A stretch of DNA of 64,000 nt. It comes from Squalus acanthias (taxonomy: Eukaryota). The notes beneath the pieces were generated by a model. The model made no database searches, was not told where the DNA came from, and saw only the letters and a program-made list of their open reading frames with translations. This document shows, piece by piece, positions 10,681 through 47,600 of the stretch. Position numbers and translations under genes: made by a program. Every line of letters begins with the position of its first letter. The stretch's first letter is position 1. The stretch is taken from assembly GCA_030390025.1 (NCBI GenBank), contig CM059449.1:14756001-14820000 (forward strand), given 5' to 3'.

Positions 10681-11614
10681 GTTGCCCAGAGTATTAAACC
10701 AGAGAAACAGCAGCACATTTATAGACACAGAGAAAGAGTTTCCTGCACATTTGCACCCAGATACACATGTAATCTGGGCGCGCACCAAATATATGTTTTA
10801 CATGTGCAATTTTTGGTGTAATTGAGTTGCACTTGCACCTACCATATGGCCAAGTCTTCTTGATGTCTTACGGTCCAGCAACCCTTCTCTCCAATCTAAT
10901 CTCCGCCCACAAAACTGGCCACGCCCCAACTCTCGAAACTGAGTATCCTCCAATTTCGCTCGTTGGACCAGATTTTCAGGCGCATCAGGAAACAATGATA
11001 TTTGTTTTTCCTTGTTGCAATTTTTATGCATTTTTAAAATAAATTGTCCTCACTGGGAGCTGCACTACATTTTGTGCTTCTTTTAATGCATTTTTATGGC
11101 AAAGTATAAGTCAGATTAGAAATTGAAAAGCAGGTTCTTTAAAGTACCGTACCTGATGTGCTTGGATGATAGTTCAATGAAATGAAACTTTTAATTTTAA
11201 GACTTGAAGAAGAAATATATTGAAATAAAAACAGAAAATGCTGGAAATGCTCAGCAGGTCAGGCAGCATCTGTCGAGAGAGAAACAGAATTAACGTTTCA
11301 GGTGAAAGACCTTTCAGCAGAAATATACTGATGCGGGTTCAGGAGTTTCCTTGGGCCCCATTGGTCTATTTTGCTTTACGCCTATTTTAAGTTCGGGCAT
11401 ATTCTAATGAGATTGGGAGGATACTTGGGTGTAATTTGACGTTGGCAATTTCGGTTGCAATTTCCAGGTTGCGCCCAAGGAGGAAAGTCCAGGCCCCGAT
11501 TCCCATCTTTCGTGGCTTTCACCGTCCCAATTGCAATGACGTTTGCCATTTTCTAACCTCGCTCTGCTAACGTCATGCTTTGTCTAATTTATTTGTCCTC
11601 CCACTGCAGGAAAA

Positions 11615-11657
11615 ATGAACCCCAGCCCCGTCCTATGGATACTGGCTGTCTTCTCGG
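11615..11657 (+). CDS. NCR3: Leader (signal peptide) exon MNPSPVLWILAVFS-G, phase 1
   Basis: Acceptor tttgtcctcccactgcag ends 11609; AAAATGA start context; hydrophobic peptide; donor TCGG|GTAAGC; phase matches all four V exons. Confidence 0.85.
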
Positions 11658-14600
11658 GTAAGCGGGCATTCCGTTGTTTCTTCGGGGTAGACGTCAGTCT
11701 CGGGCGGCAGTGCAAAAAATGGGCGATAACGAAGCGGCAATGGAACAGAAAAGCGGGCACAATGCAAACCGGGCCACCCATTCACCTGTTGTGTGCTACC
11801 GCCCAAGATGGATATGATGTCATTTGTCCATTGATCGGCATGTGTCAATCAGCTTCTGTCTCGGTGCATAATTACATCGAATGTACAGCACAGAAACAGG
11901 CTGTTCGGCCCAACAGCTCTATTCCGGTGTTTATGCTCCACACCAGCCTCCTTCCACCCTTTTCTTCTCACCCTATCAGCATGTCCTTCTATTCCTTTCT
12001 CCCTCACGTGTTTATCTGGCTTACCCTTAAATGCATCTATACTATTCGCCTCAACTACTCCCTGTGGTAGCGAGTTCCACATTCTCACCACTCTCTGGTT
12101 AAAGAAGTTTCTCCTGAATTCTCGATTGGATTTACTCGTGACTGTCTTATATTTATGACCCCTAGTTTTGGTCTCCCCCCACAAGTGGAAACATCTTCTC
12201 TACGTCTACCCTATCGAACCTCTTTCATAATCCTAACGGCCTCTCTTAGGTCACCCCTCAACCTTCTCTTTTCTAGAGAAGAGAGCCGCAGCTTGTTCAA
12301 TCTTTCCTGATAGGTATACCCTCTCAGTTCTGGTATCATCCTTGTGAATCTTTTTGGTGGCCCTCTCCAGTGGTTCTATATCCTTTTTATAATATGGAGA
12401 CCAGAACGGTGCACAGTACTTTAAATGTGGTCTACCCAAGCTTCTATACAAGTGAAAGCTTCACAATTTCTGTCAGGGCTAATAACTGAATGGACATTGT
12501 GCCGCAATGGTTCTACATATGTGACAGAGATTTAGGTGTAGATTGTTGAAAATCTACACAGCATCAAACCACTGTAGATCTGACTTGTTATTTGAATAAA
12601 CTTCAGTAGTGAGAAAAGTAAAGAGTTGCATTTATATAGCGCCTTTCACGACCTCAGGACGTCCCAAAGCGCTTTACAGCCAATGAAGGTACTCCCCTGC
12701 TCTTCTTCAAAAGAGTGCCAAGGGATCTTTTACGTCCACCTGAGAGAGCAGATGGGGCCTCGGTTTAACGTCTCATCCGAAAGACGGCACCTCTGACAGT
12801 GCAGCGCTCCTTCAGTACTGCACTGGGAATGTCAGCCTAGATTTTTGTGCTCAAGTCCCTGGAGTGGGACTTGAACCCACAACCTTCTGACTCATGAGGC
12901 GGGATTGCTGCCCACTGAGCCACAGCTGCCATTTTACCACAACGTGACGTACCATTATGATATGCCTCTACGTGTCAAATGGTATGTTGACCTTCATAGC
13001 GAGAGGATTCGAGTACAGGAGCAAGGATGTCTTGCTGCAGTTGTACAGGGCCTTGGTGAGACCACACCTTGAGCATTGTGTGCAGTTTTGGTCGCCTTAT
13101 CTGAGGAAGGATGTTCTTGTCATGGAGGGAGTGCAGCGAAGATTCACCAGACTGATACCTGGGATGGCAGGAATGACGTATGAAGAGAGATTGGGTCGAT
13201 TGGGCTTGTATTTGCTAGAGTTTAGAAGAATGAGAGGGGATTTCATTGAAACTTATAAAATTCTAACAGGACTAGACAGACTAGATGCAGGAAGGATGTT
13301 CCTGATGGCGGGGGAGTCCAGAACCAGAGGTCACAGTCTAAGGATAAGGGGTAAGCCATTTAGGACTGAGATGAGGAGGAATTTCTTCACCCAGAGAGTG
13401 GTGAACCTGTGGAATTCTCTACCACAGAAGGCAGTTGAGGCAAATTCATTAAATATATTCAAGAAGGAGTTAGATATATTTCTTAAGGCTAAAGGGATAT
13501 GGGGAGAAAGCAGGGACAGGGTACTGAATTTGGATGATCAGCCATGATCTCATTGAATGGCAGAACAGGCTCAAGGGGCCGAATGGCCTACTCCTGCTCC
13601 TATCTTCTATGTTTTGATGTCACTTTTATATTATTGAGGAGCTTAAGAATCAAATTCCGTGGGGGAGAACACTGAAAATGCTGAGAGAGATGAGGTCAAT
13701 GAAGTAATGTATTGGACGAGGTAAATATTAGATTTTGGGAGACTAGATTATAAGAAGACCGGTTTGAAGGAGACGAGGAGCTCCAGAATTTTGGACTCCG
13801 AGGAGAGAATGGGGTTGGTTAGAAGACGGCGCTCTGAGTCCTGATTTCAACACGGGGGGGATGCAGGGAGAAGGAACCACTTCCTGGTTTGTCTGGTCTC
13901 TCTGGATGTTGGAGAGGTCCTGTATATGGATCACCTAAGCTTGGTGACCATGTTGGATGCAGATTGGGGTGTGGAACTGAAAATTAAGGGGTGCTTGTTC
14001 TAGGGTAAAAGATCGATGAAATCCGCTGTTCATAGAATGATGCAGCACAGAAGGAGGCCATTAGGCCCATCGTGCTTGTGTTGGCTCTTTGAAAGCTCTA
14101 TCCAGTTAGACACACTCCCCCTGCTCTTTCCCCATAGCCCTGCAAATGTTTCCTTTTCAAGTCTATATCCAATTCCCTTTTGAGAGTTAATATTGAATCT
14201 GCTTCCACCGCCCTTTCAGGCAGCGCATTCCAGATCAAAACAACTCGCTGTGTCAAAACCTTTCTCCTCATTTCCCCCCTGGTTCTTTATCCATTTATCT
14301 TAAACCTGTGCCCTTCATAACTGTTCCTACACGATTGTCTCTCAAAGTCCCACCTCCCAGTCAGACTTTTATTTTTGTGATTTCCAGGGATTAACGCTGA
14401 GAGGTTCACAGTTACTCAGAAGGTGCCCAGTATTCCGGCGGTGGAAGGGGAGACCGTGCTCATCCCCTGTACCCACACAGCCAACGTCTCTAAGGACATA
14501 TGGTCTTACACCTGGCACAAGGACGCCAGAAATGGAACAGAAGTCTCCAGCAGAACAGCAGAGTACAGAGGACGGATCCACACACCCAGAGATGAGGATT

Positions 14601-17600
14601 TTGTCAATAACAGAGACGCTTCCATTCTAATAAAGGACGTGCGTGTGACCGATTCCGGGGTGTATTACTGCAAAGTGCTAACGATGGAACTCGGCGAGGA
14701 ATTTGGAGCCGGAACACGTCTCACTGTCAGAGGTGAGTGATTTGCCTGCCTGCAATATCGTGCGACCCATGGGTGGGAGAATTGGCCCCACAGTCTAATG
14801 GCCCTATCTCCGACTGGTGATCTCCGAAGTGAGACATTTTGGTAGAAAGAACGAGGAGAGGACATATAAACTAAAGGGTATGATCCTAAAGGGGGTGCAT
14901 GAACAGAAAGACCTGGGGGTACATGTGCACAAATCATTGAAGGTGGCAGGACAGGCTGAGAAAGTGGTTAAAAAAGCATATGGGATACTGGGCTTCATAA
15001 ATAGAAGCATAGAGTACAAAAACAAGGAAGTTATGATGAACCTTTATAAAACACTGGTTCGGCCTCAGCTGGAGTATTGTGTCCAATTCTGGGCACCGCA
15101 CTTTAGGAAGGATGTGAAGGCCTTAGAGAGGGTGCAGAAAAGATTTACAAGAATGATTTGAGGGATGAGGGACTTCAGTTACGAGGATAGACTGCAGAAG
15201 CTGGGGTTGTTCTCCTTTGTAAGGGTTTTTTTTTGTCGGGCTTATTTGTAGGTCAGCCAGTTATGTTTTCCTGGACTGTCCTGCGCCCGCTATGCGGTTG
15301 CGAATCGCTATCCCCTTTATTAGTTCTGAGCCCAGGACTTATCGAGCGGCGATAAAGACAAACGAACAGACCCGTGGATTGGTGCGAGGAAAACCAATGT
15401 TTATTTACAGAAGTAAAACTACAGAGAAACAGTATCATATGAAAACGGTTTTACACTTAGCATGGGAAGAGAACGGACACATCGAGGGAAAATCCTAAAA
15501 TTACAATTTTAGCAATATCCCCATTAATCCCCACCCCTATGCCTAACTAGAATTGTCTTGCGACAGCCAGAAGATAATGCTCACCGTTGAAATGGATGGA
15601 AAAACCTGGCCCTGTGCTCTGTTTCTGCCGTCGACACGTGGCTCCGAAGTTTCTGGCAGTCTTCTTTCTTAGCTGCTGGCAGACAGAGCGAACCGAGGGT
15701 CCAGGCAGAGAGAGAGAAAAATGGCTGGGTCTTCCCAGTTATACCCCCTCCGGTCGCTCTAATCTTCCCACCGATCAGCACATTTCTATTGTCTGATCTG
15801 GGCATGATGAATTTTAACAAAAGGTAATGGTCTCGGCCCATGATGCTAGATGGCCGGTAATGGTGTGATACCAGTTCTTCAACTGCCACCCTATTGTTCG
15901 ACAGGTTGGATGATTGTCCAGAACAGTTCCGTTGATGGGCCCAGCGCCGTCTCAATGTCTCCGCTGATTACTTGAGTAAACACCTTGAAGGCCTTATGCA
16001 TAGACCTGATTGTAATGCATAAGGAAAGGTCCTGTCCTGTTGCAGACATCAGAATACACAAGCTGACACGAGGTCCGACCGCGGCCATTTTATGTCCTGG
16101 ATTTTAAAACTCAGTCTGACCAGGGTTTCTTTATTAATAAGTCCAACAACAAACATCTTCGGGGGTGGGGGGGGGGGAAACACATGAAATTTAAGGGGTG
16201 CTTGTTCTAGGGTAAAAGATCGATGAAATCCGCTGTTCATAGAATGATGCAGCACAGAAGGAGGCCATTAGGCCCATCGTGCTTGTGTTGGCTCTTTGAA
16301 AGCTCTATCCAGTTAGACACACTCCCCCTGCTCTTTCCCCATAGCCCTGCAAATGTTTCCTTTTCAAGTCTATATCCAATTCCCTTTTGAGAGTTAATAT
16401 TGAATCTGCTTCCACCGCCCTTTCAGGCAGCGCATTCCAGATCAAAACAACTCACTGTGTCAAAACCTTTCTCCTCATTTCCCCCCTGGTTCTATATCCA
16501 TTTATCTTAAACCTGTGCCCTTCATAACTGTTCCTACACGATTGTCTCTCAAAGTCCCACCTCCCAGTCAGACTTTTATTTTTGTGATTTCCAGGGATTA
16601 ACGCTGAGAGGTTCACAGTTACTCAGAAGGTGCCCAGTATTCCGGCGGTGGAAGGGGAGACCGTGCTCATCCCCTGTACCCACACAGCCAACGTCTCTAA
16701 GGACATATGGTCTTACACCTGGCACAAGGACACCAGAAATGGAGCAGAAGTCTCCAGCAGAACAGCAGAGTACAGAGGACGGATCCACACACCCAGAGAT
16801 GAGGATTTTGTCAATAACAGAGACGCTTCCATTCTAATAAAGGACGTGCGTGTGACCGATTCCGGGGTGTATTACTGCAAAGTGCTAACGATGGAACTCG
16901 GCGAGGAATTTGGAGCCGGAACACGTCTCACTGTCAGAGGTGAGTGATTTGCCTGCCTGCAATATCGTGCGACCCATGGGTGGGAGAATTGGCCCCACAG
17001 TCTAATGGCCCTATCTCCGACTGGTGATCTCTGAAGTGAGACATTTTGGTAGAAAGAACAAGGAGAGGACATATAAACTAAAGGGTATGATCCTAAAGGG
17101 GGTGCATGAACAGAAAGACCTGGGGGTACATGTGCACAAATCATTGAAGGTGGCAGGACAGGCTGAGAAAGTGGTTAAAAAAGCATATGGGATACTGGGC
17201 TTCATAAATAGAAGCATAGAGTACAAACACGAGGAAGTTATGATGAACCTTTATAAAACACTGGTTCGGCCTCAGCTGGAGTATTGTGTCCAATTCTGGG
17301 CACTGCACTTTAGGAAGGATGTGAAGGCCTTAGAGAGGGTGCAGAAAAGATTTACAAGAATGATTTCATGGATGAGGGACTTCAGTTACGTGGATAGACT
17401 GCAGAAGCTGGGGTTATTCTCCTTTGTAAGGGTTTTTTTTTTGACTGGCTTATTTGTAGGTCAGCCAGTTATGTTTTCCTGGACTGTCCTGCGCCCGCTA
17501 TGCGGTTGCGAATCGCTATCCCCTTTATTAGTTCTGAGCCCAGGACTTATCGAGCGGCGATAAAGACAAACGAACAGACCCGTGGATTGGTGCGAGGAAA

Positions 17601-20600
17601 ACCAATGTTTATTTACAGAAGTAAAACTACAGAGAAACAGTATCATATGAAAACGGTTTTACACTTAGCATGGGAAGAGAACGGACACATCGAGGGAAAA
17701 TCCTAAAATTACAATTTTAGCAATATCCCCATTAATCCCCACCCTTATGCCTAACTAGAATTGTCTTGCGACAGCCAGAAGATAATGCTCACCGTTGAAA
17801 TGGATGGAAAAACCTGGCCCTGTGCTCTGTTTCTGCCATCGACACGTGGCTCCGAAGTTTCTGGTAGTCTTCTTTCTTAGCTGCTGGCAGACAGAGCGAA
17901 CCGAGGGTCCAGGCAGAGAGAGAGAAAAACATGGCTGGGTCTTCCCAGTTATCCCCCCTCCGGTCGCTCTAATCTTCCCACCGATCAGCACATTTCTATT
18001 GTCTGATCTGGGCATGATGAATTTTAACAAAAGGTACTGGTCTCGGCCCATCATGCTAGATGGCCGGTAATGGTGTGATACCAGTTCTTCAACTGCCACC
18101 CTATTGTTCGACAGGTTGGATGATTGTCTAGAACAGTTCCGTTGATGGGCCCAGCGCCGTCTCAATGTCTCCGCTGATTACTTGAGCAAACACCTTGAAG
18201 GCCTTATGCATAGACCTGATTGTAATGCATAAGGAAAGGTCCTGTCCTGTTGCAGACATCGGAATACACCAGCTGACACGAGGTCCGACCGCGGCCATTT
18301 TATGTCCTGGATTTTAAAACTCAGTCTGACCAGGGTTTCTTTATTAATAAGTCCAACAACAAACATCTTCGGGGGTGGCGGGGGGGGGAACACATGAAAA
18401 TTAAGGGGTGCTTGTTCTAGGGTAAATGATCGATGAAATCCGCTGTTCATAGAATGATGCAGCACAGCAGGAGGCCATTAGGCCCATCGTGCTTGTGTTG
18501 GCTCTTTGAAAGCTCTATCCAGTTAGACACACTCCCCCTGCTCTTTCCCCATAGCCCTGCAAATGTTTCCTTTTCAAGTCTATATCCAATTCCCTTTTGA
18601 GAGTTAATATTGAATCTGCTTCCACCGCCCTTTCAGGCAGCGCATTCCAGATCAAAACAACTCACTGTGTCAAAACCTTTCTCCTCATTTCCCCCCTGGT
18701 TCTTTATCCATTTATCTTAAACCTGTGCCCTTCATAACTGTTCCTACACGATTGTCTCTCAAAGTCCCACCTCCCAGTCAGACTTTTATTTTTGTGATTT
18801 CCAGGGATTAACGCTGAGAGGTTCACAGTTACTCAGAAGGTGCCCAGTATTCCGGCGGTGGAAGGGGAGACCGTGCTCATCCCCTGTACCTACACAGCCA
18901 ACGTCTCTAAGGCGATATGGTCTTACACCTGGCACAAGGACGCCAGAAATGGAGCAGAAGTCTCCAACGGAACAGCAGAGTACAGAGGACGGATCCACAC
19001 ACCCAGAGATGAGGATTTTTTCAATACCAGAGACGCTTCCATTCTAATAAAGGACGTGAGTGTGACCGATTCCGGGGTGTATTACTGCAAAGTGCTAATG
19101 ATGGAACTCGGCGAGGAATTTGGAGCCGGAACACGTCTCATTGTCGGAGGTGAGTGATTTGACTGCCTGCAATATCGTGCGACCCATGGGTGGGAGAATT
19201 GGCCCCACAGTCTAATGGCCCTATCTCCGACTGGTGATCTCCGAAGTGATACATTTTGGTAGAAAGAACGAGGAGAGGACATATAAACTAAAGGGTATGA
19301 TCCTAAAGGGGGTGCATGAACAGAAAGACCTGGGGGTACATGTGCACAAATCATTGAAGGTGGCAGGACAGGCTGAGAAAGCGGTTAAAAAAGCATATGG
19401 GATACTGGGCTTCATAAATAGAAGCATAGAGTACAAAAACAAGGAAGTTATGATGAACCTTTATAAAACACTGGTTCGGCCTCAGCTGGAGTATTGTGTC
19501 CAATTCTGGGCACCGCACTTTAGGAAGGATGTGAAGGCCTTAGAGAGGGTGCAGAAAAGATTTACAAGAATGATTCCAGGGATGAGGGACTTCAGTTACG
19601 TGGATAGACTGGAGAAGCTGGGGTTGTTCTCCTTAGAGCAGAGAAGGTTGAGAGGAGATTTGATAGAGATGTTCAAAACCATGAGGGGTCCAGACAGAGT
19701 AGATAGAGAGAAACTGTTCCCATTGGCAGAAGGGTCGAGAACCAGAGGACACAGATTTAAGTTGATTGGCAAAAGAACCAAAGGCGAAATGAGGAAAAAC
19801 TTTTTTATGCAGCGAATGGTAAGGATCTGGAATTCACTGCCTGAAAGGGTGGTGGAGGCAGACTCAATCGTCGCTTTCAAAAGGGAATTGGATAAGTACC
19901 TGAAGGGGAAAAACAATTGCAGGGCTACGGGGAAAGGGCGGGGTGAGTGGGACTAGCTGAAGTGCTCTTGCAGAGAGCCGGCACGGGCTCGACGGGCCGA
20001 ATGGCCTCCTTCTGTGCTGTAACCATTCTATGGTGCCTCTGCCAGTATGGTTTCACTGTGGGGAAATTCCGATTGTGGAATCACCCTCCGCTGCAGAGCA
20101 GAGACTATTTAACCATTTTAAATAGCCGGTTGTCGACTTTGCGATTATATAGTGCAGGAACCTCTATGTTAAAGAATAACACTCGTCGGAAATCAAACCG
20201 GTTGGCTGGCTGCATAGTTATAACAAAGGATCTAAGGAAGGACATACTTGCCTTGGAGGCGGTGCAACAAAGGTTCACGAGATTGATTCCTGGGATGAGA
20301 GGGCTGTCCTATGAGGAGAGATTGTGTAGAATGGGACTATACTCTCTGGAGTTTTGAAGAATGAGAGGTGATCTCATTGAAACATACAAGATTCGGAAGG
20401 GGATTGACAGGGTAGATGCTGAGAGGTTGTTTCCCCTGGCTGGAGTGTCTAGAACTAGGGGGCATAGTCTCAGGATAAGGGGAAGGCCATGTAATAACAA
20501 CAACTTGTAGTGCCTTTAATGTAGTAAAACGTTCCAAGGCGCTGCACAGGAGTATTTTAAGACAAAATAAATTGACACAGAGCCACATGAGGATAAATTA

Positions 20601-23600
20601 GGGCAGGTGACCAAAAGCTTGGTCAAAGAGGTAGGTTTTAAGGAGCGTCTTAAAGGAGGAAAGAGAGGTAGCGAGGCGGAGAGGTTTAGGGAGGGAATTC
20701 CAGAGCTTAAGGCCCAGGCAACAGAAAGCACGGCCATCAATGGTTGAGCGATTATAATCAGGGATGCTCAAGAGGGCAGATACCTCGGGGTGTTGTGGGG
20801 CTGAAGGTGATTACAGAGATAGGAAGGGGCGAGGCCATGGAGGGATTTGAAAACAAGGATGAGAATTTTGAAATCGAGGCGCTGCTTAAGCAGCAGCCAA
20901 TGTAGGTCAGCGAGCACAGGCGAGATGGGGAGGAATTTCTTCACTCAGAGGGTTGTGAATCTTTGGAATTCTCTTCCCCAGAGGGCTGTGAATGCTGAGT
21001 CTTTGAGTATATTCAAGGCTGAGATCGATAGATTTTTGGACCCATGGGGAATCAAGGGATATGGAGATCGGGCAGGAAAGTGGAGTTGAGGTCGATGATC
21101 AGCCATGATCTTATTGAATGGCGGAGCAGGCTCGAGGGGCCGTATGGCCTACTCCTGCTCCTATTTCTTATGTTCTCAAGTGGGCATGCTGACCAAAAAC
21201 AAGTCCGTATTTGAATCCAAACCAATATCCGACTCCCTGTCCTGCTCTGGAGACTGACCGAGGGAGGGTTGTGCCTTTGAGCAGCTGGTGAGTGTTGCCG
21301 CTAATCGGGAATTCACTCTGAACGTTGACCCTTCATTACTGGTCCTGCATAACTTAGTCCCAACTTCTAATCAGATAGCAGCGACCTTTCATTCTTCTGA
21401 TTTCCAGGGATTGACGCTGAGAGGTTCACAGTTACTCAGAAGGTGCCCAGTATTCTGGCGGTGGAAGGGGAGACTGTGCTCATCCCCTGTACCTACACAG
21501 CCAACGTCTCTATGGTGATAGGGTCTTACACCTGGCACAAGGACACCAGAAATGGTAAAGTTGTCTCCAACGGGACAACAGAGTACAGAGGCCGGATCTT
21601 CAGGCCCAAGGAAGAGGATTTTTTAAACGCTTCCATTCTAATAAAGGAGGTGGGAGTGAACGATTCCGGGATGTATTACTGCAAAGTGTGGAAGAATGGA
21701 CTCGGCGAGGAGTATGGAGCCGGAACGCATCTCACTGTGAGCGGTGAGTGATTTGCCTGCCTGCATTATCATCGAATTGCAATTGTAATTACCCATATAC
21801 TGACGGAAGATTAGTTTTCAACTTGCTGCCCATGTGTAAAACTGGCGTTAAGAATTGGCTGCCCATTGTAGAAATCATTTCGCTAACAGGTGGCAGATTG
21901 GTAACGCCAGTTTTACTCCAGGGTGATAAATTGAAGATCTTACCCTACATTTCTGTAAATGACCGGTGCAATGTGTAGATTATGTACTGGAACTTTATAC
22001 ACCACATAAAGGGCGGGCGGTGCTACAGGTTAGGCCCTTTCCCCTCTGGGACTGGGTGGTGCAGTGGGTCAGACACTGTCCTTTCCCCCTCTGGGACTGG
22101 GTGGTGTGGTGTGTCAGACACTGTCCTTTCACCCTCTGGGACTGGGTGGTGTGGTGGGTCAGACACTGTCCTTTCCCCCTCTGGGACTGGGTGGTGTGGT
22201 GTGTCAGACACTGTCCTTTCCCCCTCTGGGACTGGGTGGTGTGGTGGGTCAGACACTGTCCTTTCCCCCTCTGGGACTGGGTGGTGCAGTGGGTCAGACA
22301 CTGTCCTTTCCCCCTCTGGGACTGGGTGGTGCAGTGGGTCAGACACTGTCCTTTCCCCCTCTGGGACTGGGTGGTGCAGTGGGTCAGACACTGTCCTTTC
22401 CACCTCTGGGACTGGGCGGTGTGGTGGGTAAGACACTGTCCTTTCTCCCTCTGGGACTGGGTGGTGCAGTGGGTCAGACACTGTCCTTTCACCCTCTGGG
22501 ACTGGGCGGTGCAGTGGGTCAGACACTGTCCTTTCCCCCTCTGGGACTGGGTGGTGCAGTGGGTCAGACACTGTCCTTTCCCCCTCTGGGACTGGGTGGT
22601 GCAGTGGGTCGACACTGTCCTTTCACCCTCTGGGACTGGGTGGTGCAGTGGGTCAGACACTGTCCTTTCCCATCTGGGACTGGGTGGTGCGGTGGGTCAG
22701 ACACTGTCTTTTCACCATCTGGGACTGGGTGGTGCAGTGGGTCAGACACTGTCCTTTCCCCCTCTGGGACTGGGCGGTGCAGTGTGTCAGACACTGTCCT
22801 TTCCCCCTCTGGGACTGGGTGGTGCAGTGGGTCAGACACTGTCCTTTCACCCTCTGGGACTGGGTGGTGCAGTGGGTCAGACACTGTCCTTTCACCCTCT
22901 GGGACTGGGCGGTGCAGTGGGTCAGACACTGTCCTTTCTCCCTCTGGGACTGGGCGGTGCAGTGGGTCAGACACTGTCCTTTCCCCCTCTAGGACTGGGT
23001 GGTGCAGTGGGTCAGACACTGTCCTTTCTCCCTCTGGGACTGGGCGGTGCAGTGGGTCAGACACTGTCCTTTCCCCCTCTGGGACTGGGTGGTGCAGTGG
23101 GTCAGACACTGTCCTTTCACCCTCTGGGACTGTGTGGTGCAGTGAGTCAGGCTCTGTTCTTTTCCCCTCTGGGACTGGGTGGTGCGGTGGGTCAGACACT
23201 GTCCTTTCCCCCTCTGGGACTGGGTGGTGAGGTGGGTCAGACACTGTCCTTTCCCCCTCTGGGACTGGGTGGTGCAGTGGGTCAGGCACTGTCCTTTCCC
23301 CCTCTGGGACTGGGTGGTGCAGTGGGTCAGACACTGTCCTTTCTCCCTCTGGGACTGGGTGGTGCAGTGGGTCAGACACTGTCCTTTCCCCTCTGGGACT
23401 GGGTGGTGCAGTGGGTCAGACACTGTCCTTTCACCCTCTGGGACTGGGCGGTGCAGTGGGTCAGACACTGTCCTTTCCCCCTCTGGGACTGGGTGGTGCA
23501 GTGGGTCAGACACTGTCCTTTCCCCCTCTGGGACTGGGTGGTGCAGTGGGTCAGACACTGTCCTTTCCCCCTCTGGGACTGGGTGGTGCAGTGGGTCAGA

Positions 23601-26600
23601 CACTGTCCTTTCCCCCTCTGGGACTGGGTGGTGCGGTGGGTCAGACACTGTCCTTTCCCCCTCTGGGACTGGGTGGTGCGGTGGGTCAGACACTGTCCTT
23701 TCCCCCTCTGGGACTGGGCGGTGTGGTGGGTAAGACACTGTCCTTTCTCCCTCTGGGACTGGGTGGTGCAGTGGGTCAGACACTGTCCTTTCACCCTCTG
23801 GGACTGGGCGGTGCAGTGGGTCAGACACTGTCCTTTCCCCCTCTGGGACTGGGTGGTGCAGTGGGTCAGACACTGTCCTTTCCCCCTCTGGGACTGGGTG
23901 GTGCAGTGGGTCAGACACTGTCCTTTCACCCTCTGGGACTGGGTGGTGCAGTGGGTCAGACACTGTCCTTTCCCCCTCTGGGACTGGGTGGTGCGGTGGG
24001 TCAGACACTGTCTTTTCACCCTCTGGGACTGGGTGGTGCAGTGGGTCAGACACTGTCCGTTCCCCCTCTGGGACTGGGCGGTGCAGTGAGTCAGACACTG
24101 TCCTTTCCCCCTCTGGGACTGGGTGGTGCAGTGGGTCAGACACTGTCCTTTCACCCTCTGGGACTGGGTGGTGCAGTGGGTCAGACACTGTCCTTTCACC
24201 CTCTGGGACTGGGCGGTGCAGTGGGTCAGACACTGTCCTTTCTCCCTCTGGGACTGGGCGGTGCAGTGGGTCAGACACTGTCCTTTCCCCCTCTGGGACT
24301 GGGTGGTGCAGTGGGTCAGACACTGTCCTTTCTCCCTCTGGGACTGGGCTGTGCAGTGGGTCAGACACTGTCCTTTCCCCCTCTGGGACTGGGTGGTGCA
24401 GTGGGTCAGACACTGTCCTTTCCCCCTCTGGGACTGGGTGGTGCAGTGGGTCAGACACTGTCCTTTCCCCCTCTGGGACTGTGTGGTGCAGTGGGTCAGA
24501 CACTGTCCTTTCCCCCTCTGGGACTGGGCGGTGCTGGTGGGTCAGACACTGTCCTTTCTCCCTCTGGGACTGGGTGGTGCAGTGGGTCAGACACTGTCCT
24601 TTCACCCTCTGGGACTGGGCGGTGCAGTGGGTCAGACACTGTCCTTTCCCCCTCTGGGACTGGGTGGTGCAGTGGGTCAGACACTGTCCTTTCCCCCTCT
24701 GGGACTGGGTGGTGCAGGTGGGTCAGACACTGTCCTTTTCACCCTCTGGGACTGGGTGGTGCAGTGGGTCAGACACTGTCCTTTCCCCCTCTGGGACTGG
24801 GCGGTGCAGTGGGTCAGACACTGTCCTTTCCCCCTCTGGGACTGGGTGGTGCAGTGGGTCAGACACTGTCCTTTCACCCTCTGGGACTGGGTGGTGCAGT
24901 GGGTCAGACACTGTCCTTTCACCCTCTGGGACTGGGCGGTGCAGTGGGTCAGACACTGTCCTTTCTCCCTCTGGGACTGGGCGGTGCAGTGGGTCAGACA
25001 CTGTCCTTTCCCCCTCTGGGACTGGGTGGTGCAGTGGGTCAGACACTGTCCTTTCTCCCTCTGGGACTGGGCGGTGCAGTGGGTCAGACACTGTCCTTTC
25101 CCCCTCTGGGACTGGGTGGTGCAGTGGGTCAGACACTGTCCTTTCCCCCTCTGGGACTGGGTGGTGCGGTGGGTCAGACACTGTCCTTTCCCCCTCTGGG
25201 ACTGGGCGGTGTGGTGGGTCAGACACTGTCCTTTCTCCCTCTGGGACTGGGTGGTGCAGTGGGTCAGACACTGTCCTTTCACCCTCTGGGACTGGGCGGT
25301 GCAGTGGGTCAGACACTGTCCTTTCCCCCTCTGGGACTGGGTGGTGCAGTGGGTCAGACACTGTCCTTTCCCACTCTGGGACTGGGTGGTGCAGTGGGTC
25401 AGACACTGTCCTTTCACCCTCTGGGACTGGGTGGTGCAGTGGGTCAGACACTGTCCTTTCCCCCTCTGGGACTGGGTGGTGCGGTGGGTCAGACACTGTC
25501 TTTTAACCCTCTGGGACTGGGTGGTGCAGTGGGTCAGACACTGTCCGTTCCCCCTCTGGGACTGGGCGGTGCAGTGAGTCAGACACTGTCCTTTCCCCCT
25601 CTGGGACTGGGTGGTGCAGTGGGTCAGACACTGTCCTTTCACCCTCTGGGACTGGGTGGTGCAGTGGGTCAGACACTGTCCTTTCACCCTCTGGGACTGG
25701 GCGGTGCAGTGGGTCAGACACTGTCCTTTCTCCCTCTGGGACTGGGCGGTGCAGTGGGTCAGACACTGTCCTTTCCCCCTCTGGGACTGGGTGGTGCAGT
25801 GGGTCAGACACTGTCCTTTCTCCCTCTGGGACTGGGCTGTGCAGTGGGTCAGACACTGTCCTTTCCCCCTCTGGGACTGGGTGGTGCAGTGGGTCAGACA
25901 CTGTCCTTTCCCCCTCTGGGACTGGGTGGTGCAGTGGGTCAGACACTGTCCTTTCCCCCTCTGGGACTGTGTGGTGCAGTGGGTCAGACACTGTCCTTTC
26001 CCCCTCTGGGACTGGGCGGTGTGGTGGGTAAGACACTGTCCTTTCTCCCTCTGGGACTGGGTGGTGCAGTGGGTCAGACACTGTCCTTTCACCCTCTGGG
26101 ACTGGGCGGTGCAGTGGGTCAGACACTGTCCTTTCCCCCTCTGGGACTGGGTGGTGCAGTGGGTCAGACACTGTCCTTTCCCCCTCTGGGACTGGGTGGT
26201 GCAGTGGGTCAGACACTGTCCTTTCACCCTCTGGGACTGGGTGGTGCAGTGGGTCAGACACTGTCCTTTCCCCCTCTGGGACTGGGTGGTGCGGTGGGTC
26301 AGACACTGTCTTTTCACCCTCTGGGACTGGGTGGTGCAGTGGGTCAGACACTGTCCGTTCCCCCTCTGGGACTGGGCGGTGCAGTGAGTCAGACACTGTC
26401 CTTTCCCCCTCTGGGACTGGGTGGTGCAGTGGGTCAGACACTGTCCTTTCACCCTCTGGGACTGGGTGGTGCAGTGGGTCAGACACTGTCCTTTCACCCT
26501 CTGGGACTGGGCGGTGCAGTGGGTCAGACACTGTCCTTTCTCCCTCTGGGACTGGGCGGTGCAGTGGGTCAGACACTGTCCTTTCCCCCTCTGGGACTGG

Positions 26601-29600
26601 GTGGTGCAGTGGGTCAGACACTGTCCTTTCTCCCTCTGGGACTGGGCGGTGCAGTGGGTCAGACACTGTCCTTTCCCCCTCTGGGACTGGGTGGTGCGGT
26701 GGGTCAGACACTGTCTTTCACCCTCTGGGACTGGGTGGTGCAGTGGGTCAGACACTGTCCGTTCCCCCTCTGGGACTGGGCGGTGCAGTGAGTCAGACAC
26801 TGTCCTTTCCCCCTCTGGGACTGGGTGGTGCAGTGGGTCAGACACTGTCCTTTCACCCTCTGGGACTGGGTGGTGCAGTGGGTCAGACACTGTCCTTTCA
26901 CCCTCTGGGACTGGGCGGTGCAGTGGGTCAGACACTGTCCTTTCTCCCTCTGGGACTGGGCGGTGCAGTGGGTCAGACACTGTCCTTTCCCCCTCTGGGA
27001 CTGGGTGGTGCAGTGGGTCAGACACTGTCCTTTCTCCCTCTGGGACTGGGCGGTGCAGTGGGTCAGACACTGTCCTTTCCCCCTCTGGGACTGGGTGGTG
27101 CAGTGGGTCAGACACTGTCCTTTCCCCCTCTGGGACTGGGTGGTGCGGTGGGTCAGACACTGTCCTTTCCCCCTCTGGGACTGGGCGGTGTGGTGGGTAA
27201 GACACTGTCCTTTCTCCCTCTGGGACTGGGTGGTGCAGTGGGTCAGACACTGTCCTTTCACCCTCTGGGACTGGGCGGTGCAGTGGGTCAGACACTGTCC
27301 TTTCCCCCTCTGGGACTGGGTGGTGCAGTGGGTCAGACACTGTCCTTTCCCACTCTGGGACTGGGTGGTGCAGTGGGTCAGACACTGTCCTTTCACCCTC
27401 TGGGACTGGGTGGTGCAGTGGGTCAGACACTGTCCTTTCCCCCTCTGGGACTGGGTGGTGCGGTGGGTCAGACACTGTCTTTTAACCCTCTGGGACTGGG
27501 TGGTGCAGTGGGTCAGACACTGTCCGTTCCCCCTCTGGGACTGGGCGGTGCAGTGAGTCAGACACTGTCCTTTCCCCCTCTGGGACTGGGTGGTGCAGTG
27601 GGTCAGACACTGTCCTTTCACCCTCTGGGACTGGGTGGTGCAGTGGGTCAGACACTGTCCTTTCACCCTCTGGGACTGGGCGGTGCAGTGGGTCAGACAC
27701 TGTCCTTTCTCCCTCTGGGACTGGGCGGTGCAGTGGGTCAGACACTGTCCTTTCCCCCTCTGGGACTGGGTGGTGCAGTGGGTCAGACACTGTCCTTTCT
27801 CCCTCTGGGACTGGGCTGTGCAGTGGGTCAGACACTGTCCTTTCCCCCTCTGGGACCGGGTGGTGCAGTGGGTCAGACATTGTCCTTTCCCCCTCTGGGA
27901 CTGGGTGGTGCAGTGGGTCAGACACTGTCCTTTCCCCCTCTGGGACTGTGTGGTGCAGTGGGTCAGACACTGTCCTTTCCCCCTCTGGGACTGGGCGGTG
28001 TGGTGGGTAAGACACTGTCCTTTCTCCCTCTGGGACTGGGTGGTGCAGTGGGTCAGACACTGTCCTTTCACCCTCTGGGACTGGGCGGTGCAGTGGGTCA
28101 GACACTGTCCTTTCCCCCTCTGGGACTGGGTGGTGCAGTGGGTCAGACACTGTCCTTTCCCCCTCTGGGACTGGGTGGTGCAGTGGGTCAGACACTGTCC
28201 TTTCACCCTCTGGGACTGGGTGGTGCAGTGGGTCAGACACTGTCCTTTCCCCCTCTGGGACTGGGTGGTGCGGTGGGTCAGACACTGTCTTTTCACCCTC
28301 TGGGACTGGGTGGTGCAGTGGGTCAGACACTGTCCGTTCCCCCTCTGGGACTGGGCGGTGCAGTGAGTCAGACACTGTCCTTTCCCCCTCTGGGACTGGG
28401 TGGTGCAGTGGGTCAGACACTGTCCTTTCACCCTCTGGGACTGGGTGGTGCAGTGGGTCAGACACTGTCCTTTCACCCTCTGGGACTGGGCGGTGCAGTG
28501 GGTCAGACACTGTCCTTTCTCCCTCTGGGACTGGGCGGTGCAGTGGGTCAGACACTGTCCTTTCCCCCTCTGGGACTGGGTGGTGCAGTGGGTCAGACAC
28601 TGTCCTTTCTCCCTCTGGGACTGGGCGGTGCAGTGGGTCAGACACTGTCCTTTCCCCCTCTGGGACTGGGTGGTGCAGTGGGTCAGACACTGTCCTTTCA
28701 ACCTCTGGGACTGGGTGGTGCAGTGGGTCAGGCTCTGTTCTTTTCCCCTCTGGGACTGGGTGGTGCAGTGGGTCAGACACTGTCCTTTCCCCCTCTGGGA
28801 CTGGGTGGTGTGGTGGGTCAGACACTGTCCTTTCCCCATCTGGGACTGGGTGGTGCGGTTGGTCAGACACTGTCCTTTCTCCCTCTGGGACTGGGTGGTG
28901 CAGTGGGTCAGACACTGTCCTTTCCCCTTCTGGGACTGGGTGGTGCAGTGGGTCAGACACTGTCCTTTCACCCTCTGGGACTGGGTGGTGCAGTGGGTCA
29001 GACAATGTCCTTTCACCCTCTGGGACTGGGTGGTGCAGTGGGTCAGACACTGTCCTTTCACCCTCTGGGACTGGGTGGTGCAGTGGGTCAGACTCTGTCC
29101 TTTCACCCTCTGGGACTGGGTGGTGCAGTGGGTCAGTCGCTGTCCTTTCCCCCTCTGGGACTGGGTGGTGCAGTGGGTCAGACACTGTCCTTTCTCCCTC
29201 TGGGACTGGGTGGTGCAGTGGGTCAGACACTGTCCTTTCACCCTCTGGGACTGGGTGGTGCAGTGGGTCAGACTCTGTCCTTTCACCCTCTGGGACTGGG
29301 TGGTGCAGTGGGTCAGTCGCTGTCCTTTCCCCCTCTGGGACTGGGTGGTGCAGTGGGTCAGACACTGTCCTTTCTCCCTCTGGGACTGGGCGGTGCAGTG
29401 GGTCAGACACTGTCCTTTCCCCCTCTGGGACTGGGTGGTGCAGTGGGTCAGACACTGTCCTTTCACCCTCTGGGACTGGGTGGTGCAGTGGGTCAGGCTC
29501 AGTTCTTTTCCCCTCTGGACTGGGTGGTGCGGTGGGTCAGACACTGTCCTTTCCCCCTCTGGGACTGGGTGGTGCGGTGGGTCAGACACTGTCCTTTCCC

Positions 29601-32600
29601 CCTCTGGGACTGGGTGGTGCGGTGGGTCAGACACTGTCCTTTCTCCCTCTGGGACTGGGTGGTGCGGTGGGTCAGACACTGTCCTTTCACCCTCTGGGAC
29701 TGGGTGGTGCAGTGGGTCAGACTCTGTCCTTTCACCCTCTGGGACTGGGTGGTGCAGTGGGTCAGTCGCTGTCCTTTCCCCCTCTGGGACTGGGTGGTGC
29801 AGTGGGTCAGACACTGTCCTTTCTACCTCTGGGACTGGGTGGTGCAGTGGGTCAGACACTGTCCTTTCACCCTCTGGGACTGGGTGGTGCAGTGGGTCAG
29901 ACTCTGTCCTTTCACCCTCTGGGACTGGGTGGTGCAGTGGGTCAGTCGCTGTCCTTTCCCCCTCTGGGACTGGGTGGTGCAGTGGGTCAGACACTGTCCT
30001 TTCTCCCTCTGGGACTGGGCGGTGCAGTGGGTCAGACACTGTCCTTTCCCCCTCTGGGACTGAGTGGTGCAGTGGGTCAGACACTGTCCTTTCACCCTCT
30101 GGGACTGGGTGGTGCAGTGGGTCAGGCTCTGTTCTTTTCCCCTCTGGGACTGGGTGGTGCGGTGGGTCAGACACTGTCCTTTCCCCCTCTGGGACTGGGT
30201 GGTGTGGTGGGTCAGACACTGTCCTTTCACCCTCTGGGACTGGGTGGTGCGGTGGGTCAGACACTGTCCTTTCTCCCTCTGGGACTGGGTGGTGCAGTGG
30301 GTCAGACACTGTCCTTTCTCCCTCTGGGACTGGGTGGTGCAGTGGGTCAGACACTGTCCTTTCCCCTTCTGGGACTGGGTGGTGCAGTGGGTCAGACACT
30401 GTCCTTTCACCCTCTGGGACTGGGTGGTGCAGTGGGTCAGACTCTGTCCTTTCACCCTCTGGGACTGGGTGGTACGGTGGGTCAGACACTGTCTTTTCCC
30501 CTCTGGGACTGGGCAAAGGATCATTGAAATCTCCCCCGAAAAGCTTTTAAGGCTGGGGGGTCAATTGAACATTTCAAAATTGAGATCGATAGATTTTTGT
30601 TAGGCAAATGTAGTAGTGGATATGGAACCAAGGCGGATCGATGGAGTTAAGATCCATATCAACCATAATTTAATTGAATGGTGGAACAGGCTCGAGGGGC
30701 TGAATGGCCTCCTCTTGTTCCTGTCTTCCAATGTTCCTATCTGACTTGCTTTCTTCTCCACAGCGAAAACAAAATCTATCATGCTTCTATTGTCAATCGT
30801 ATCCATCAGCACGGTTGTGGAAGTGAGCATCCTTCTAATTATTGCACTGCTCTGTGTGTATCTACGCAGAATGAAAGGTAATGGTGTTAATCATTTGCTG
30901 TTTGCCAATTGCTAAGGCTGTGAATTTTTGTGTTGGGAAGATTGACATCTGACTACTTAAGGCAGAGGTATCCAATCTGCGGCCCTCGAGGTACGTTGGC
31001 AAGTGGGTACAGTTCTTCTTAGGCAGTCCCTCGGAACCGAGGATGACTTACTTCCCCATTAAAAATGAGTCCTCAGGTGACTGATGATTCCAATGCGGGA
31101 CCGACAGTCTCTGTCACAGGTGGGGCAGACAGTGATTGAAGGGGCGGGTGGGTGGGGTGCTTGGGTTGACGTGCGCTCCTTGCACTGCTTGCGCTTGGCT
31201 TCCGCTTGCTCCCAGCGATGAGACTCGAGGTGTTCGGCGCCTTCCCGGATGCTTCTCCTCCACTTTGTGCGGTCTTGGGCCAGGGATTCCCAGGTGTCGG
31301 TGGGGATGTTGCACTTTTTCAAGGAGGCTTTGAGGGTGTCCTTGAAGCGTTTCCTCTGCCCACCTGGGGCTCTCTTGCTGTGTCGGAGCTCCGAGTAGAG
31401 CGCTTGTTTTGGGAGTCTCGCAGTCGGGCATGCGGACGATGTGGCCCGTCCATCGGAGCTGACCGAGCGTGGTCAAAGCTTCGATGCTGGGGATGTTGGC
31501 CTGAGCGAGAACACTGACGTTGGTGCGCCTATCCTGCCAATGGATTTGCAGGATCTTGCGGAGGCAGCGTTGGTGGTACCGCTCCAGTGCTTTGAGGTGC
31601 CTGCTGTACATGGTCCATGTATACGGTAGTGTAGTAGAGATGGTACTGGACCAGCAACCCAGTGGTCGTGTGTTAAAACCGCACCCTAGTTCGCTGTGAA
31701 TATAAATTTAATAAATGTGATGATTTATTAGCGGGGGGTTGGGGGGGGTGGCGTTGGTGATTATAAAAGTTGCGGAACTTTGTAAAACCTTAGCTGGGAA
31801 TCTGCCATTGTGTCCTGATCTACAGGTAACTTCAGTTGAGGCTTGATGCTCTCTCAAGTATGAGCTACTTACTTAGAATAGCAACTGCTTCAAGAAAGAA
31901 ATACTTGCAATTATATAGCGCCTTTCATGCTCTCAGGACATCCCAAAGTGAACAGCCAATGAGGTACCTTTGAAGTGGAGTCACTGTTGTAATGTAGGGA
32001 ACCGCAGCAGCCAATTTGCGCACAGCCAGCTCCCACTCACAGCAATGTGACAATGACCAGATAAGCTGTTTTTGTTATGTTGATTGAAGGATAAATATTG
32101 GCCCAGGACACCGGGGAGAACTCCTCTGCTCTTCTTCGAAATAGTAGCCATGGGATCTTTTACCGAGAGAGCAGACGGGGCCTCGGTTTAACGTCTCATC
32201 CGAAAGATGGCACCTCTGACAGTGCAGCACCCCCGCAGCACTGCCTTGGAGTGTCGGCCTGGATTTTTGTGCTCAGATCTCTGGAGTGGGGACTTGAACC
32301 CACAACCTTCTGACTCAGAGGCGAGAGAGAGCGCTACCCACTGAGCCACGGCTGAAAAAGTCTCACCACCAGCTTCTTAGGGAAATCAGGAATGGGTAAT
32401 AATGGTTTCCTATATGAACAAATAAAAAAAAAAATGTAGGGGTAATTTTAAGCTAACTCGCTGGGCGGGAATCCCACGGGATTCGGTGGAACGCCGGTTT
32501 TACACTTGCTCCAATATTGACTTCAACGAAGAGCGAAATTGGGTGGGGTGTAAAACCGGCGTTGCACCCGATCCCGTCAGTTTCCCGATGAGTGGGTTAG

Positions 32601-44600: not shown

Positions 44601-47600
44601 GACAAGTACCAACTAAACAAAGAGTGTCAGTGTGGATTCGTGAAGGCTACATCAATCGAGTCTAATCTAATCTTTCTATTTAAACAGACAACTGCAACAG
44701 ACTGCATACAATACGCGATGATACAGAAAGGGAATTTAAAACAAGGCTCTTCTGTGAACGTGATTGCGGAATACCGTGATTTAGAGTGAGTCAGGAATTT
44801 CTCTGAACGTAACGCATTCATTTTCGGATTCTGATAATTTCAGCATCTTTTTTGATGCCACAGCTAGGGCAGAAAGAGATCTTTATTTCCCCAGTTCCAC
44901 CGAACACTAAACATCACAGTTAAGGAGTTAAGCATCTTGGCTCCTTTGTGTATATATAATTAAAAAATCTGGCACTTCCAGTCCAAAAACCTTTTCTTCG
45001 CTGTTATCGCGATTTCTGCCCAAGCTTGTGTGCCAACACTTGTTATTGTAAATTTCTATGACCGGTTGTGAAAAAGAAAGAAAGACGTGCATTTATGTAG
45101 CGCCTTTCACGACCACCGGACGTCTCAAAGCGCTTTACAACAGTGACTACACTCCAAAAGTACTTTGTTGGCTGTAATGTGGGAAACACGGCAGCCAATT
45201 TGCACACAGCAAACTCCCACAAACAACAATGTCCAGATAATCTGTTTGTTACATTGGTTGAGGGAATAAACATTGGCCAGGACACCAGGGGATAACTCCC
45301 CTGCTCTTCTTCGAAATAGAGTCATGGGATTTTTTATGTCCACCTGAGAGAGCAGACGGGGCCTCGGTTTAGCATCTCATCTGGAAAGATGGTACCTCCG
45401 GCAGTGCAGCACTCCCTCAGCAGTATATTGGGTGTCAGCCTAGCTTTATGTGTTACAAGTCCCCTGGAGTGGGACTTGAACCCACAACCTTCTGACTCAG
45501 AGGCAAGCGTGCTACCCACTGAGCCACAGCTGACACACCAGGTGGAGTCAGATTCCCAACCATTTGTTAGTAATGTATAATAATCTTTATGACTTTTGTA
45601 ACTGTAAAAAGAATCGATTTTGTGGGATTGAAATACCTTGACAATGAGTTAGACCCATCATTAATTGTGGAGAAATGCCCTATCAGTGTGCTCCTGACCC
45701 ATACTTGGAAGGTGCAGCTTGGATCCCTGACCTGCGCTGAGCTCGCTGGTCCCAGGTGGGACAGGGAGCATAGAGAGTCACATCAAACCCCGAGCTGTGG
45801 CAGGGGCTGGTGAGATGGGAATCCGACAGCGTTGGTATTCCTGATCACAATCATACTGACCCCTGCTGGACAGCGTATAGATCAGGCGTGACTGTGACGC
45901 TACCCATGGTCCAGTAGAGAGTTGATATTCACTGTATAGGCAAAGTACACCAGGGCTGCCGACAGCTTTAGAAAAGTAACTATCTTCAGGAGATGGGGCA
46001 ATTGGGGGAAAAAAACACATTTCATCCTCGTGGCTGGCCTCCCTCATTCTACCCTATGTAAACTTGAGGTCATCCAAAACTCGGCTGCCCGTGTCCCAAC
46101 TCGCACCAAGTCCCGTTTGCCCATCACCCCAGTGCTCGCTGACCTACATTGGATCCCAGTTAAGCAAAGCCTCGATTTCAAAATTCTCATCCTTGTTTTC
46201 AAATCCCTCCATGGCCTCGCCCCTCCCTATCTCTGTAATCTCCTCCAGCCCCACAACCACCCAGAGATATCTGCGCTTCTCTAATTCCGCCCTTTTGAGC
46301 ATCCCTGGTTATAATCGCTCAACCATTGGCGGCCGTGCCTTCTGTTGCCGAGGCCCTCAGCTCTTGAATTCCCTGCCTGAACCTCTCTACCACCTCTTAA
46401 GATGCTCCTTAAAATCTACCTCTTTGGCCAAGCTTTTGGTCACCTGCCCTAATTTCTCCTTATGTGGCTCAGTGTCAACATTTTTGTCCTATAATACTCC
46501 TGTGCAGCGCCTTGGGAGGTTTTACTACGTTAAAGACGCCATAAAAGTACAAGTTATTGCTGTTGTATATTAAAACTGTAGATGAAGATGTGTATCCCCC
46601 CTGCATCGCAAAGGATGGGTTCACTTCACTGGATAGTGTCGATTTCTTTTGATCCAAACAAGTTTTCATCAGTTTAAATTGTATTGTCCTGTCTCACACT
46701 CTTGATTTGGCTAACAGTTACCTTCTCCCTTTACTGAAAGAACCAACCGAACGTCCTAATCTCAGTCTTGTCAGTCTGTCCTTGTAGCAGCGTCAATGAG
46801 AACATTTTAAAATAGGAGCAAAGTAAAATCCCCTTGGTCCAACGAACCTGTCCCTTTTTAACTCCTCTCAACTCGACTTTCTCATCGTCTCACATTATCG
46901 CTTAGTCCCTTCTCACCTCTAGAAATTTGTTGAACAATGCTGTTCCTTTCAGTGGAATTTCCTTGTACCTGATGCCACAAATCTACCACCCTTTCTCTTA
47001 AAAAGTAACTAAAATGCTTTTAACATCCACGTTAAAATAGCCAATAGAGCCACGCCGTACCAACGCGGTTAGCATATCATCCCTTAATATCGCCAACTGT
47101 AATGTCTCGGCTAAAATATTATTTTTGGCTTATGGGCTGCACTGTTTGTCTGAAAGCCAATCAACTTGTGCTTCACATCAGGGCGGATTATTGTTTAAAG
47201 ATGGCAGAATTGAATCTAAGTAACTGTTCTAGGGCCAGCTCCAGAAAGTTTTTTTTATTTGTTCATGTGATGTGGGCGTTGCTGGCAAGGCCAGCATTTA
47301 TTGCCTATCTCTAATTGCCCTGCTAGGCCATTTCAGAGGGCAGTTAAGAGTCAACCACATTTCTGTGGGTCTGGAGTCACATATAGGCCAGACCAGGTAG
47401 GGACAGCAGATTTCTTTCTCTAAAGGACATTAGTGAACCAGATGGGGTTTTACAATAATCCAGTTATCACCATTACTGATACTTGCTTTTTTCCCCCAGA
47501 TTTGTTTAATTAACTGAATTATAAATTCCCCAGCTGCCATGGTGGGATTTGAATTCTTGTCACCGGATTATTAGTCCAGGCTTTTACGATTACTAGTAAC

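Follow-up and report, generated by a model that had tools for sequence, protein, structure and literature searches.

The window analysed here, a 64,000-nt stretch of the Squalus acanthias genome (assembly GCA_030390025.1, contig CM059449.1, positions 14,756,001 to 14,820,000, forward strand), carries a predicted receptor gene with four tandem NKp30-like variable (V) exons, the first three of which (V1, V2 and V3) form a near-identical trio separated by solo long terminal repeats (LTRs). No codon differs only synonymously among these three exons, and positive selection in some form, either after duplication or as captured alleles, probably lies behind this pattern.

Leader, transmembrane (TM) and cytoplasmic exons were located with the homologous proteins of Heterodontus and Mobula, and 15 exons join in phase into 669 aa with intact splice sites and no internal stop. 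The predicted protein comprises a leader, four NKp30-like domains that each combine the V region and a joining (J) motif in one exon (VJ), a TM segment and a 160-aa tail with two motifs resembling the immunoreceptor tyrosine-based inhibitory motif (ITIM). The parts of the gene, in window positions, are:

11615..11657, + strand: leader (signal peptide) exon with a phase-1 donor, placed by splice sites and by tblastn, with 67% over 15 aa against the leader of Heterodontus P0003/P0004
14388..14732, + strand: V1, NKp30-like VJ exon, phase 1-1, N-glycosylation sequons N32 and N48
16595..16939, + strand: V2 exon, at 2 nt distance from V1, sole sequon N32
18805..19149, + strand: V3 exon, with sequons N32 and N54 and the ancestral state at 8/12 sites that distinguish it from V1
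21408..21743, + strand: V4, membrane-proximal VJ exon that lacks 3 aa, a deletion that the Heterodontus and Mobula proximal domains also have
22035..30514, no strand assigned: minisatellite with a unit of ~45 nt, in the V4-TM intron and also after the paralogous exon V5
30764..30877, + strand: TM exon, phase 1-1, with Glu present and Arg/Lys absent from the hydrophobic stretch
36390-36430, 38235-38276, 38366-38409, 40624-40661 (GC donor) and 42843-42877, + strand: predicted cytoplasmic exons
44688..44785, + strand: cytoplasmic exon with the ITIM-like IQYAMI
48095-48129 and 50047-50087, + strand: cytoplasmic exons
52192..52299, + strand: last coding exon, with the ITIM-like IVYAAL and the stop codon

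The exons at 36390, 40624 and 42843 were placed by weak homology and phase fit, and the GC-AG donor at 40661 is needed to keep the frame; the segment 34463-34500 is a plausible further cytoplasmic exon for which a matching phase partner was not found. Because the 15-exon model is open and its phases fit, V1 to V3 are, in this sequence-based model, tandem copies of an exon in a single predicted gene for an inhibitory receptor rather than gene duplicates. Three separate genes were rejected as an arrangement, in that a simple pattern scan found no leader-like exon inside the duplicated units and a single leader and a single TM exon flank the array. All V exons are of phase 1-1, so tandem splicing and exon skipping would both preserve the frame, and the four are presumably spliced in tandem, like those of the annotated three-V proteins of Heterodontus and Mobula. 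ITIMs are defined as (I/L/V/S)xYxx(I/L/V), and in the predicted frame both IQYAMI and IVYAAL conform to this definition. The glutamate in the middle of the TM segment is odd for an ITIM receptor; it is also present in Heterodontus P0001 and absent from P0003/P0004.

The V exons match the Pfam V-set domain (E about 1e-14), and an FGAGTRLTV-type J motif ends the exon with a GT donor directly after it, which is the VJ-in-one-exon organization of the NCR3/NKp30 family; rearranging T-cell receptor or immunoglobulin (Ig) V segments were rejected because the J motif sits in the V exon itself with the splice donor next to it. Both sequence and fold point to NKp30 as the closest solved relative: the top four matches of a phmmer search of the PDB were human NKp30 (E 4e-15 to about 5e-15, the next family following at 1e-8), and so were the top four of a Foldseek search (TMq 0.79-0.83) with an AlphaFold model of V1 (33-row alignment, predicted local distance difference test (pLDDT) score 92). 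Residues were mapped to NKp30 by sequence alignment with V1, and a helix at 68-74 of the V1 model takes the position of the NKp30 82-88 segment. Among the tabulated contacts of NKp30 with B7-H6 (PMC3135353 Table II), V1 keeps the equivalents of I50, S52 and F85 and differs at E111, L113 and G114, and V4 and V5 retain the I-G-S of the contact strand. At residue 38, which corresponds to the Gly51 contact of human NKp30, V1 to V3 have Trp, as do both Mobula distal domains; the Gly is kept in V4, V5 and the Heterodontus distal domains.

Canonical activating NKp30 has a single V domain, a short tail and a TM arginine, the last of which couples it to CD3zeta/FcRgamma; the NCR3/NKp30 family is known for B7-H6 binding and for expression on NK or T cells. 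Human NKp30/NCR3 shares the single VJ exon with the shark gene and is nearest to it in sequence and fold, but it has one V domain, whereas the shark gene has four tandem V exons, an Arg-free TM segment and a long tail with two ITIM-like motifs. The canonical activating features thus fail, and the gene is predicted to work like an inhibitory natural killer (NK)-type Ig receptor with an NKp30-family domain.

The 111 candidates included four longer homologues, of which three belong to Heterodontus francisci (XP_067865770-75) and one to Mobula hypostoma (XP_062903899); two of them have three tandem V domains, and their RefSeq labels are 'turtle-like', 'SIRP beta-2-like' and 'uncharacterized'. The protein search found no relative of single-domain length at E<=1e-12. 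The Heterodontus and Mobula homologues share the leader of the Squalus gene, resemble it in TM segment and tail, and have a short proximal domain among their three tandem V domains, all NKp30-like; these three go back to older, separate distal duplications, whereas the Squalus gene has four, three of them near-identical. Distal domains cluster by species in the domain tree (Mobula 100/99, Heterodontus 98/97) and V1 to V3 group together (94/93); this grouping fits repeated independent distal duplication or concerted evolution.

The NCR3 gene is presented as a non-rearranging, MHC-linked VJ-domain gene in PMC12227049, which gives eight nurse shark NCR3 accessions. In our search for major histocompatibility complex (MHC) class I domains, 16 of 50 matches lay on the same contig, 16-24 Mb off, and the strongest lay on other contigs; 16 class I-like alpha2 matches cluster at 30.7-38.4 Mb of the contig. 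The MHC class II search gave zero matches and is hence uninformative on MHC linkage. Kinlein et al. (2021, Immunogenetics 73:333) reportedly described the shark NCR3 family as non-rearranging VJ exons in a multigene cluster, Xenopus XMIV is likewise a multigene cluster of such exons, and the Squalus locus resembles both. Multi-V, ITIM-bearing subtypes, or a cluster of this size, may already be contained in Kinlein et al. 2021 or Flajnik 2012; in the literature searched, to which these two do not belong, no paper on a multi-V NKp30-like ITIM gene type was found, and a search on XMIV, NKp30 and ITIM likewise found no paper.

The V1-V3 array is built of repeated units and LTRs as follows:

13978..15217, + strand: unit X1 (1,240 nt), V1 between a 5' flank that we take to be SINE-like (short interspersed nuclear element) and a 3' flank that we take to be CR1-like
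15218..16184, no strand assigned: solo LTR copy 1 at junction 1, one terminus ~20 nt short
16185..17424, + strand: unit X2
17425..18394, no strand assigned: solo LTR copy 2 at junction 2, 14/967 nt from copy 1
18395..19634, + strand: unit X3, which continues into uninterrupted repeat, the LTR-empty site

The layout is thus X-LTR-X-LTR-X, in which X is the 1,240 nt around the V exon and the intervening element measures 967-970 nt. We read this element as an LTR because of its many genomic copies (at least 40 matches, 40/40 scored), several of which occur in pairs ~7 kb apart. The two window copies aside, the family has at least 40 copies genome-wide with 92-97% identity, some with short target-site duplications (TSDs). 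Set against 10 other copies, each junction LTR has one full terminus, and its opposite terminus lacks ~20 nt and adjoins X through 5-8 nt of microhomology; no TSD was seen at either junction. At 13983, 16190 and 18400, the two LTR-X junctions are unlike at one base of the microhomology, where one carries the LTR base and the other the native one, a hint of subsequent conversion at the border between units.

Hereafter U1 to U3 denote, in divergence and selection tests, the units carrying V1 to V3. Neutral divergence is 1.1% for U1-U3, 1.8% for U2-U3, 1.3% for U1-U2 and 14/967 between the two LTRs, and the similarity of these values suggests two duplication events close in time. The first duplication would have arisen at the LTR, either by aberrant one-ended integration accompanied by duplication of a long host segment, a mechanism for which our literature search found no paper, or by exchange at microhomology between a haplotype with the LTR and one without it; the third unit would come from later unequal crossing-over. 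With the rate of 7e-10 per generation given for the epaulette shark (PMC10587355), the array is ~8-12 million generations old, and as this rate is borrowed, 'young' is meant in a relative sense.

The three exons are each 345 nt long and align without gaps. V1 and V2 differ at 2 nt (A46T and T50A), and V1 and V3 at 12 nt in 11 codons with the residue altered in each, compared with 10/895 nt in the V1-V3 flanks; these counts and the residue pairs are exactly those of an earlier reading of this DNA, the first-pass annotation. Over the whole trio, 13 nt vary in 12 codons, all 12 of which alter the residue (codon 36, with a two-base change, possibly hides one silent step), and the distal domains are 96.5-99.4% identical. 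Random changes would be expected to be non-synonymous in ~67-76% of cases, under which 13/13 has P=0.005-0.027 and at least 12/13 has P=0.04-0.14. Two of the 12 changes gain or lose an N-glycosylation sequon, and the sequon sets differ per copy in the region of residues 48-56.

Selection in the trio was assessed with our own implementation of the GY94 codon model. In the M0 model omega was far above 1, with likelihood ratio test (LRT) p=0.009 (F3x4) or 0.007 (F1x4) against omega=1 and p=0.006 without the doublet codon 36, and a branch model of the trio branches gave p=0.008-0.010 against omega=1; the dN/dS above 1 supposed by the first-pass annotation is therefore seen. The V1-V3 exons are more diverged than their flanks (3.48% vs 1.12%, two-sided Fisher test, p=0.008). 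When non-synonymous sites were compared with pooled flank and synonymous sites, the ratio was 3.8-4.5 for U1-U3 (one-sided p=0.0005-0.002, and 0.008-0.037 when multiplied by the 17 young exon pairs of the surrounding cluster) and 2.6-3.0 for U2-U3 (p=0.005-0.015).

The changes were polarised by the paralogues V4 and V5. The latter, at contig positions 14868579-14868925 (- strand), ~92 kb past V4, contains a 1-nt frameshift; it combines a V1-V3-like exon with a V4-like 3' intron and the same minisatellite, has a leader-like match ~1.8 kb upstream, and is a mosaic and probably a pseudogene, unless the frameshift is an assembly indel. V3 equals V5 at 8/12 V1-V3 differences, which places 8 nt (7 residues) as derived on the V1+V2 stem; two others are derived in V3, 14552 is ambiguous and 14537 groups V2 with V3. 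The polarity of H29 and R85 is less sure, since domains of Heterodontus or Mobula show the same states. Maximum-likelihood branch lengths were 0.079 for the stem, 0.024 for V3 and 0.009 for V1 and V2. The flanks, polarised by other repeat copies, have 4 stem changes (up to 6 under other assignments), and the stem contrast of 8/345 in the exon vs 4-6/889 in the flank has p=0.006-0.03. V1 and V2 are, if anything, less diverged than their own flanks.

Taken in this way, the first-pass claim of diversifying selection on the V domain stands in so far as positive selection is the best single explanation; as selection among all copies it does not, with 8/12 changes on the V1+V2 stem, V3 mostly ancestral and V1/V2 below their flanks. 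The copies may also be expressed, as the first-pass annotation deduced from selection; their frame and splice sites are intact. What we propose, tentatively and at somewhat less than an even chance, is episodic positive selection after duplication on the new distal domain of one NKp30-like gene with three in-frame copies. The new distal copy would have fixed ~7 residue changes in a short episode, and the changed copy would then likely have been duplicated again, giving V1 and V2; selection would have acted on ligand or pathogen-decoy binding, or on the glycosylation of the distal domain. A replacement-only pattern is familiar in immune receptors, and its statistical support here is moderate.

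A considerable number of results weigh against this proposal. The first-pass annotation had held that the exons are denser in differences than their introns; two-sided Fisher tests bear this out for V1-V3 as given above, weakly for V2-V3 (3.48% vs 1.79%, p=0.087) and neither for V1-V2, where the order is reversed (0.58% in the exon, 1.34% in the flank, p=0.37), nor for the union of the trio (13/345 vs 19/895, p=0.11). When the 3' flank is taken by itself, the stem contrast weakens to p=0.085; a branch test limited to the stem is borderline (p=0.04-0.05, and p=0.08-0.10 vs M0), and the pooled comparison of U2-U3 rises to 0.08-0.25 after multiplication by 17. If neutral change is calibrated on the LTR divergence (2.3-3.0%), the excess has p=0.02-0.16. 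The M1a/M2a comparison of V1 to V5 gives p=0.0004, but p=0.46 without 16 multi-hit codons, M2a p=0.054 without V4, and p=0.013 with V4 codons 97-100 masked. These four codons are a dense cluster of change that resembles a compensated one-base shift and drives much of the V1-V5 site signal. Only 1 of the 12 changed codons is at the 11 listed B7-H6 contacts (codon 72, equivalent to Leu86; p=0.72) and 3 are within one residue of them (p=0.39), so an enrichment of trio changes at the B7-H6 face found no support; the variable sites of V1 to V5 taken together show a mild excess within one residue of the contacts (12/21, p=0.02 uncorrected). Finally, three informative site patterns conflict and U1-U2 have an identity run with p=0.033, from which we conclude that recombination occurred and may bias the selection tests. 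The same run suggests that V1 and V2 may have been homogenised later, which would lengthen the apparent stem and leave the changes on one lineage.

The surroundings of the gene bear on the same question. A protein search with V1 gave 58 matches among the best 150 of 357 candidates, all on the same contig at 13.56-17.13 Mb, where NKp30-like VJ exons form a cluster that includes segmental duplications and several disrupted copies. Of its 57 intervals, 52 exons were kept, after removal of 2 without a splice call and 3 with frameshifts; in the large subfamily, 20/23 exons were used after removal of 3 stop-bearing ones. The 16 other independent young pairs hold 23 synonymous and 77 non-synonymous changes (pN/pS 1.11, p=0.38), and their exons are below the flank expectation. 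Site tests in six other subfamilies were not significant (p=0.09-1.0), and the largest of these subfamilies has an M0 omega of 0.66. Cluster-wide diversifying selection in young V duplicates is therefore not supported, and as the other pairs and subfamilies show no excess, the trio pattern is local rather than a property of the cluster. V1/V3 is the top outlier of the 17 young pairs: its one-sided exon-vs-flank p of 0.0126 becomes ~0.21 when multiplied by 17, and in the combined test the corrected p spans 0.008-0.25, depending on the comparison. One other pair has p=0.044 uncorrected, and a stop-bearing pair leans in the same direction (9 non-synonymous and 2 synonymous changes vs 1.8% flank, p=0.068). 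Also in this cluster lie another set of four V exons in tandem, unrelated to the present array, at 14886525-14892445 (M0 omega 1.75, not significant) and several further two- or three-exon tandem V sets. Nearer to the gene, two related tandem-repeat arrays (6716-8382 and 9814-10688) lie 5' of the leader exon, and two terminal-type exon copies with the ITIM-like VQYCTL (62657-62773, - strand, and ~71,300-71,400, past the window end) match the Heterodontus P0003 tail and are assigned to neighbouring, oppositely oriented genes.

These cluster-wide results, together with the union and V1-V2 comparisons and the lack of enrichment at the ligand face, favour chance combined with a picked outlier: the V exons of the cluster would have an average omega of about 1, non-synonymous changes would make up three quarters of random ones, and V1/V3 would simply be the most striking pair. 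We nevertheless regard this as rather unlikely, because the combined U1-U3 test survives multiplication by 17, the trio LRT gives p=0.006-0.009 and the changes are concentrated on one branch.

A second alternative, to which we give slightly less credence, is heterogeneous duplication, in which an LTR-bearing and an LTR-empty haplotype with V exons already diverged by balancing or diversifying selection were joined by microhomology-mediated unequal exchange. The empty site of U3 without a TSD and the junction LTRs cut at microhomology are the expected product of two such haplotypes, the near-simultaneous split of the three units (1.1-1.8% in flank and LTR) leaves little time for a later burst, and heterogeneous duplications are known in mosquitoes (PMC6121789), the additional feature here being that alleles could be captured inside one polypeptide. 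On the other side, the same layout would result if an LTR integrated aberrantly by one end in a single chromatid, and old balanced alleles should bring silent and flank divergence along, whereas silent change (dS) amounts to 0-0.5 of 84 sites and flank divergence to ~1%. The specific form of this alternative is equally doubtful, namely that two selectively diverged alleles of a ligand-binding exon were captured in tandem via an LTR polymorphism, with one receptor showing both specificities and three glycosylation patterns; if it were true, three elasmobranch lineages would each have duplicated the distal domain independently.

Least favoured of these alternatives, and improbable in our view, is exon-limited conversion of the V1/V2 ancestor from a paralogue missing in the assembly. 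The paralogues V4 and V5 share only the exon and ~25 nt, so that conversion would raise exon divergence without new selection; V5, with its V1-V3-like exon and V4-like 3' intron, attests to past mosaicism; H29 and R85 are also seen in domains of Heterodontus or Mobula; and zero silent changes out of 8 has P ~0.09 at omega=1 (0.74^8). The first-pass annotation had pointed out that some V3 or V2 states match V4, which our comparison bore out, and had left room for a conversion tract; no single tract with V4 or V5 accounts for the excess, as Sawyer-type run tests gave p=0.995 for V3-V4, 0.63 for V3-V5 and p>=0.42 for V1/V2-V5, and private V5 sites interrupt the shared ones. Besides V5, no donor above 90% identity appeared in a DNA search of the genome that returned only 6 matches, all scored, or in the best 150 of 357 candidates of the protein search. 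A tandem false duplication by the assembly is unlikely because the units are 1-2% apart and each junction has its own diverged LTR copy (14/967 nt).

KIR, LILR, SIRP, CEACAM and NITR are Ig-superfamily receptors that evolve fast and have duplicated domains or exons, and the Squalus locus likewise combines a replacement excess in ligand-binding Ig domains after duplication with a birth-and-death cluster and broken copies; in contrast to them, its duplication lies within one gene, has LTRs at its borders and can be traced to the breakpoint. A replacement excess is to be expected in the V domains of immune receptors, and as it is not cluster-wide here, it is of interest to specialists rather than surprising. 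The predicted gene places an NKp30-like fold in a multi-domain, ITIM-bearing architecture, and RefSeq mislabels such proteins in two other species. V1 and V3, 11 residues apart, are a ready pair for probing the ligands of shark NKp30-like receptors. If the selection is real, the array would be a breakpoint-resolved case of a slowly evolving vertebrate lineage adding and retuning the domains of a germline NK-type receptor.

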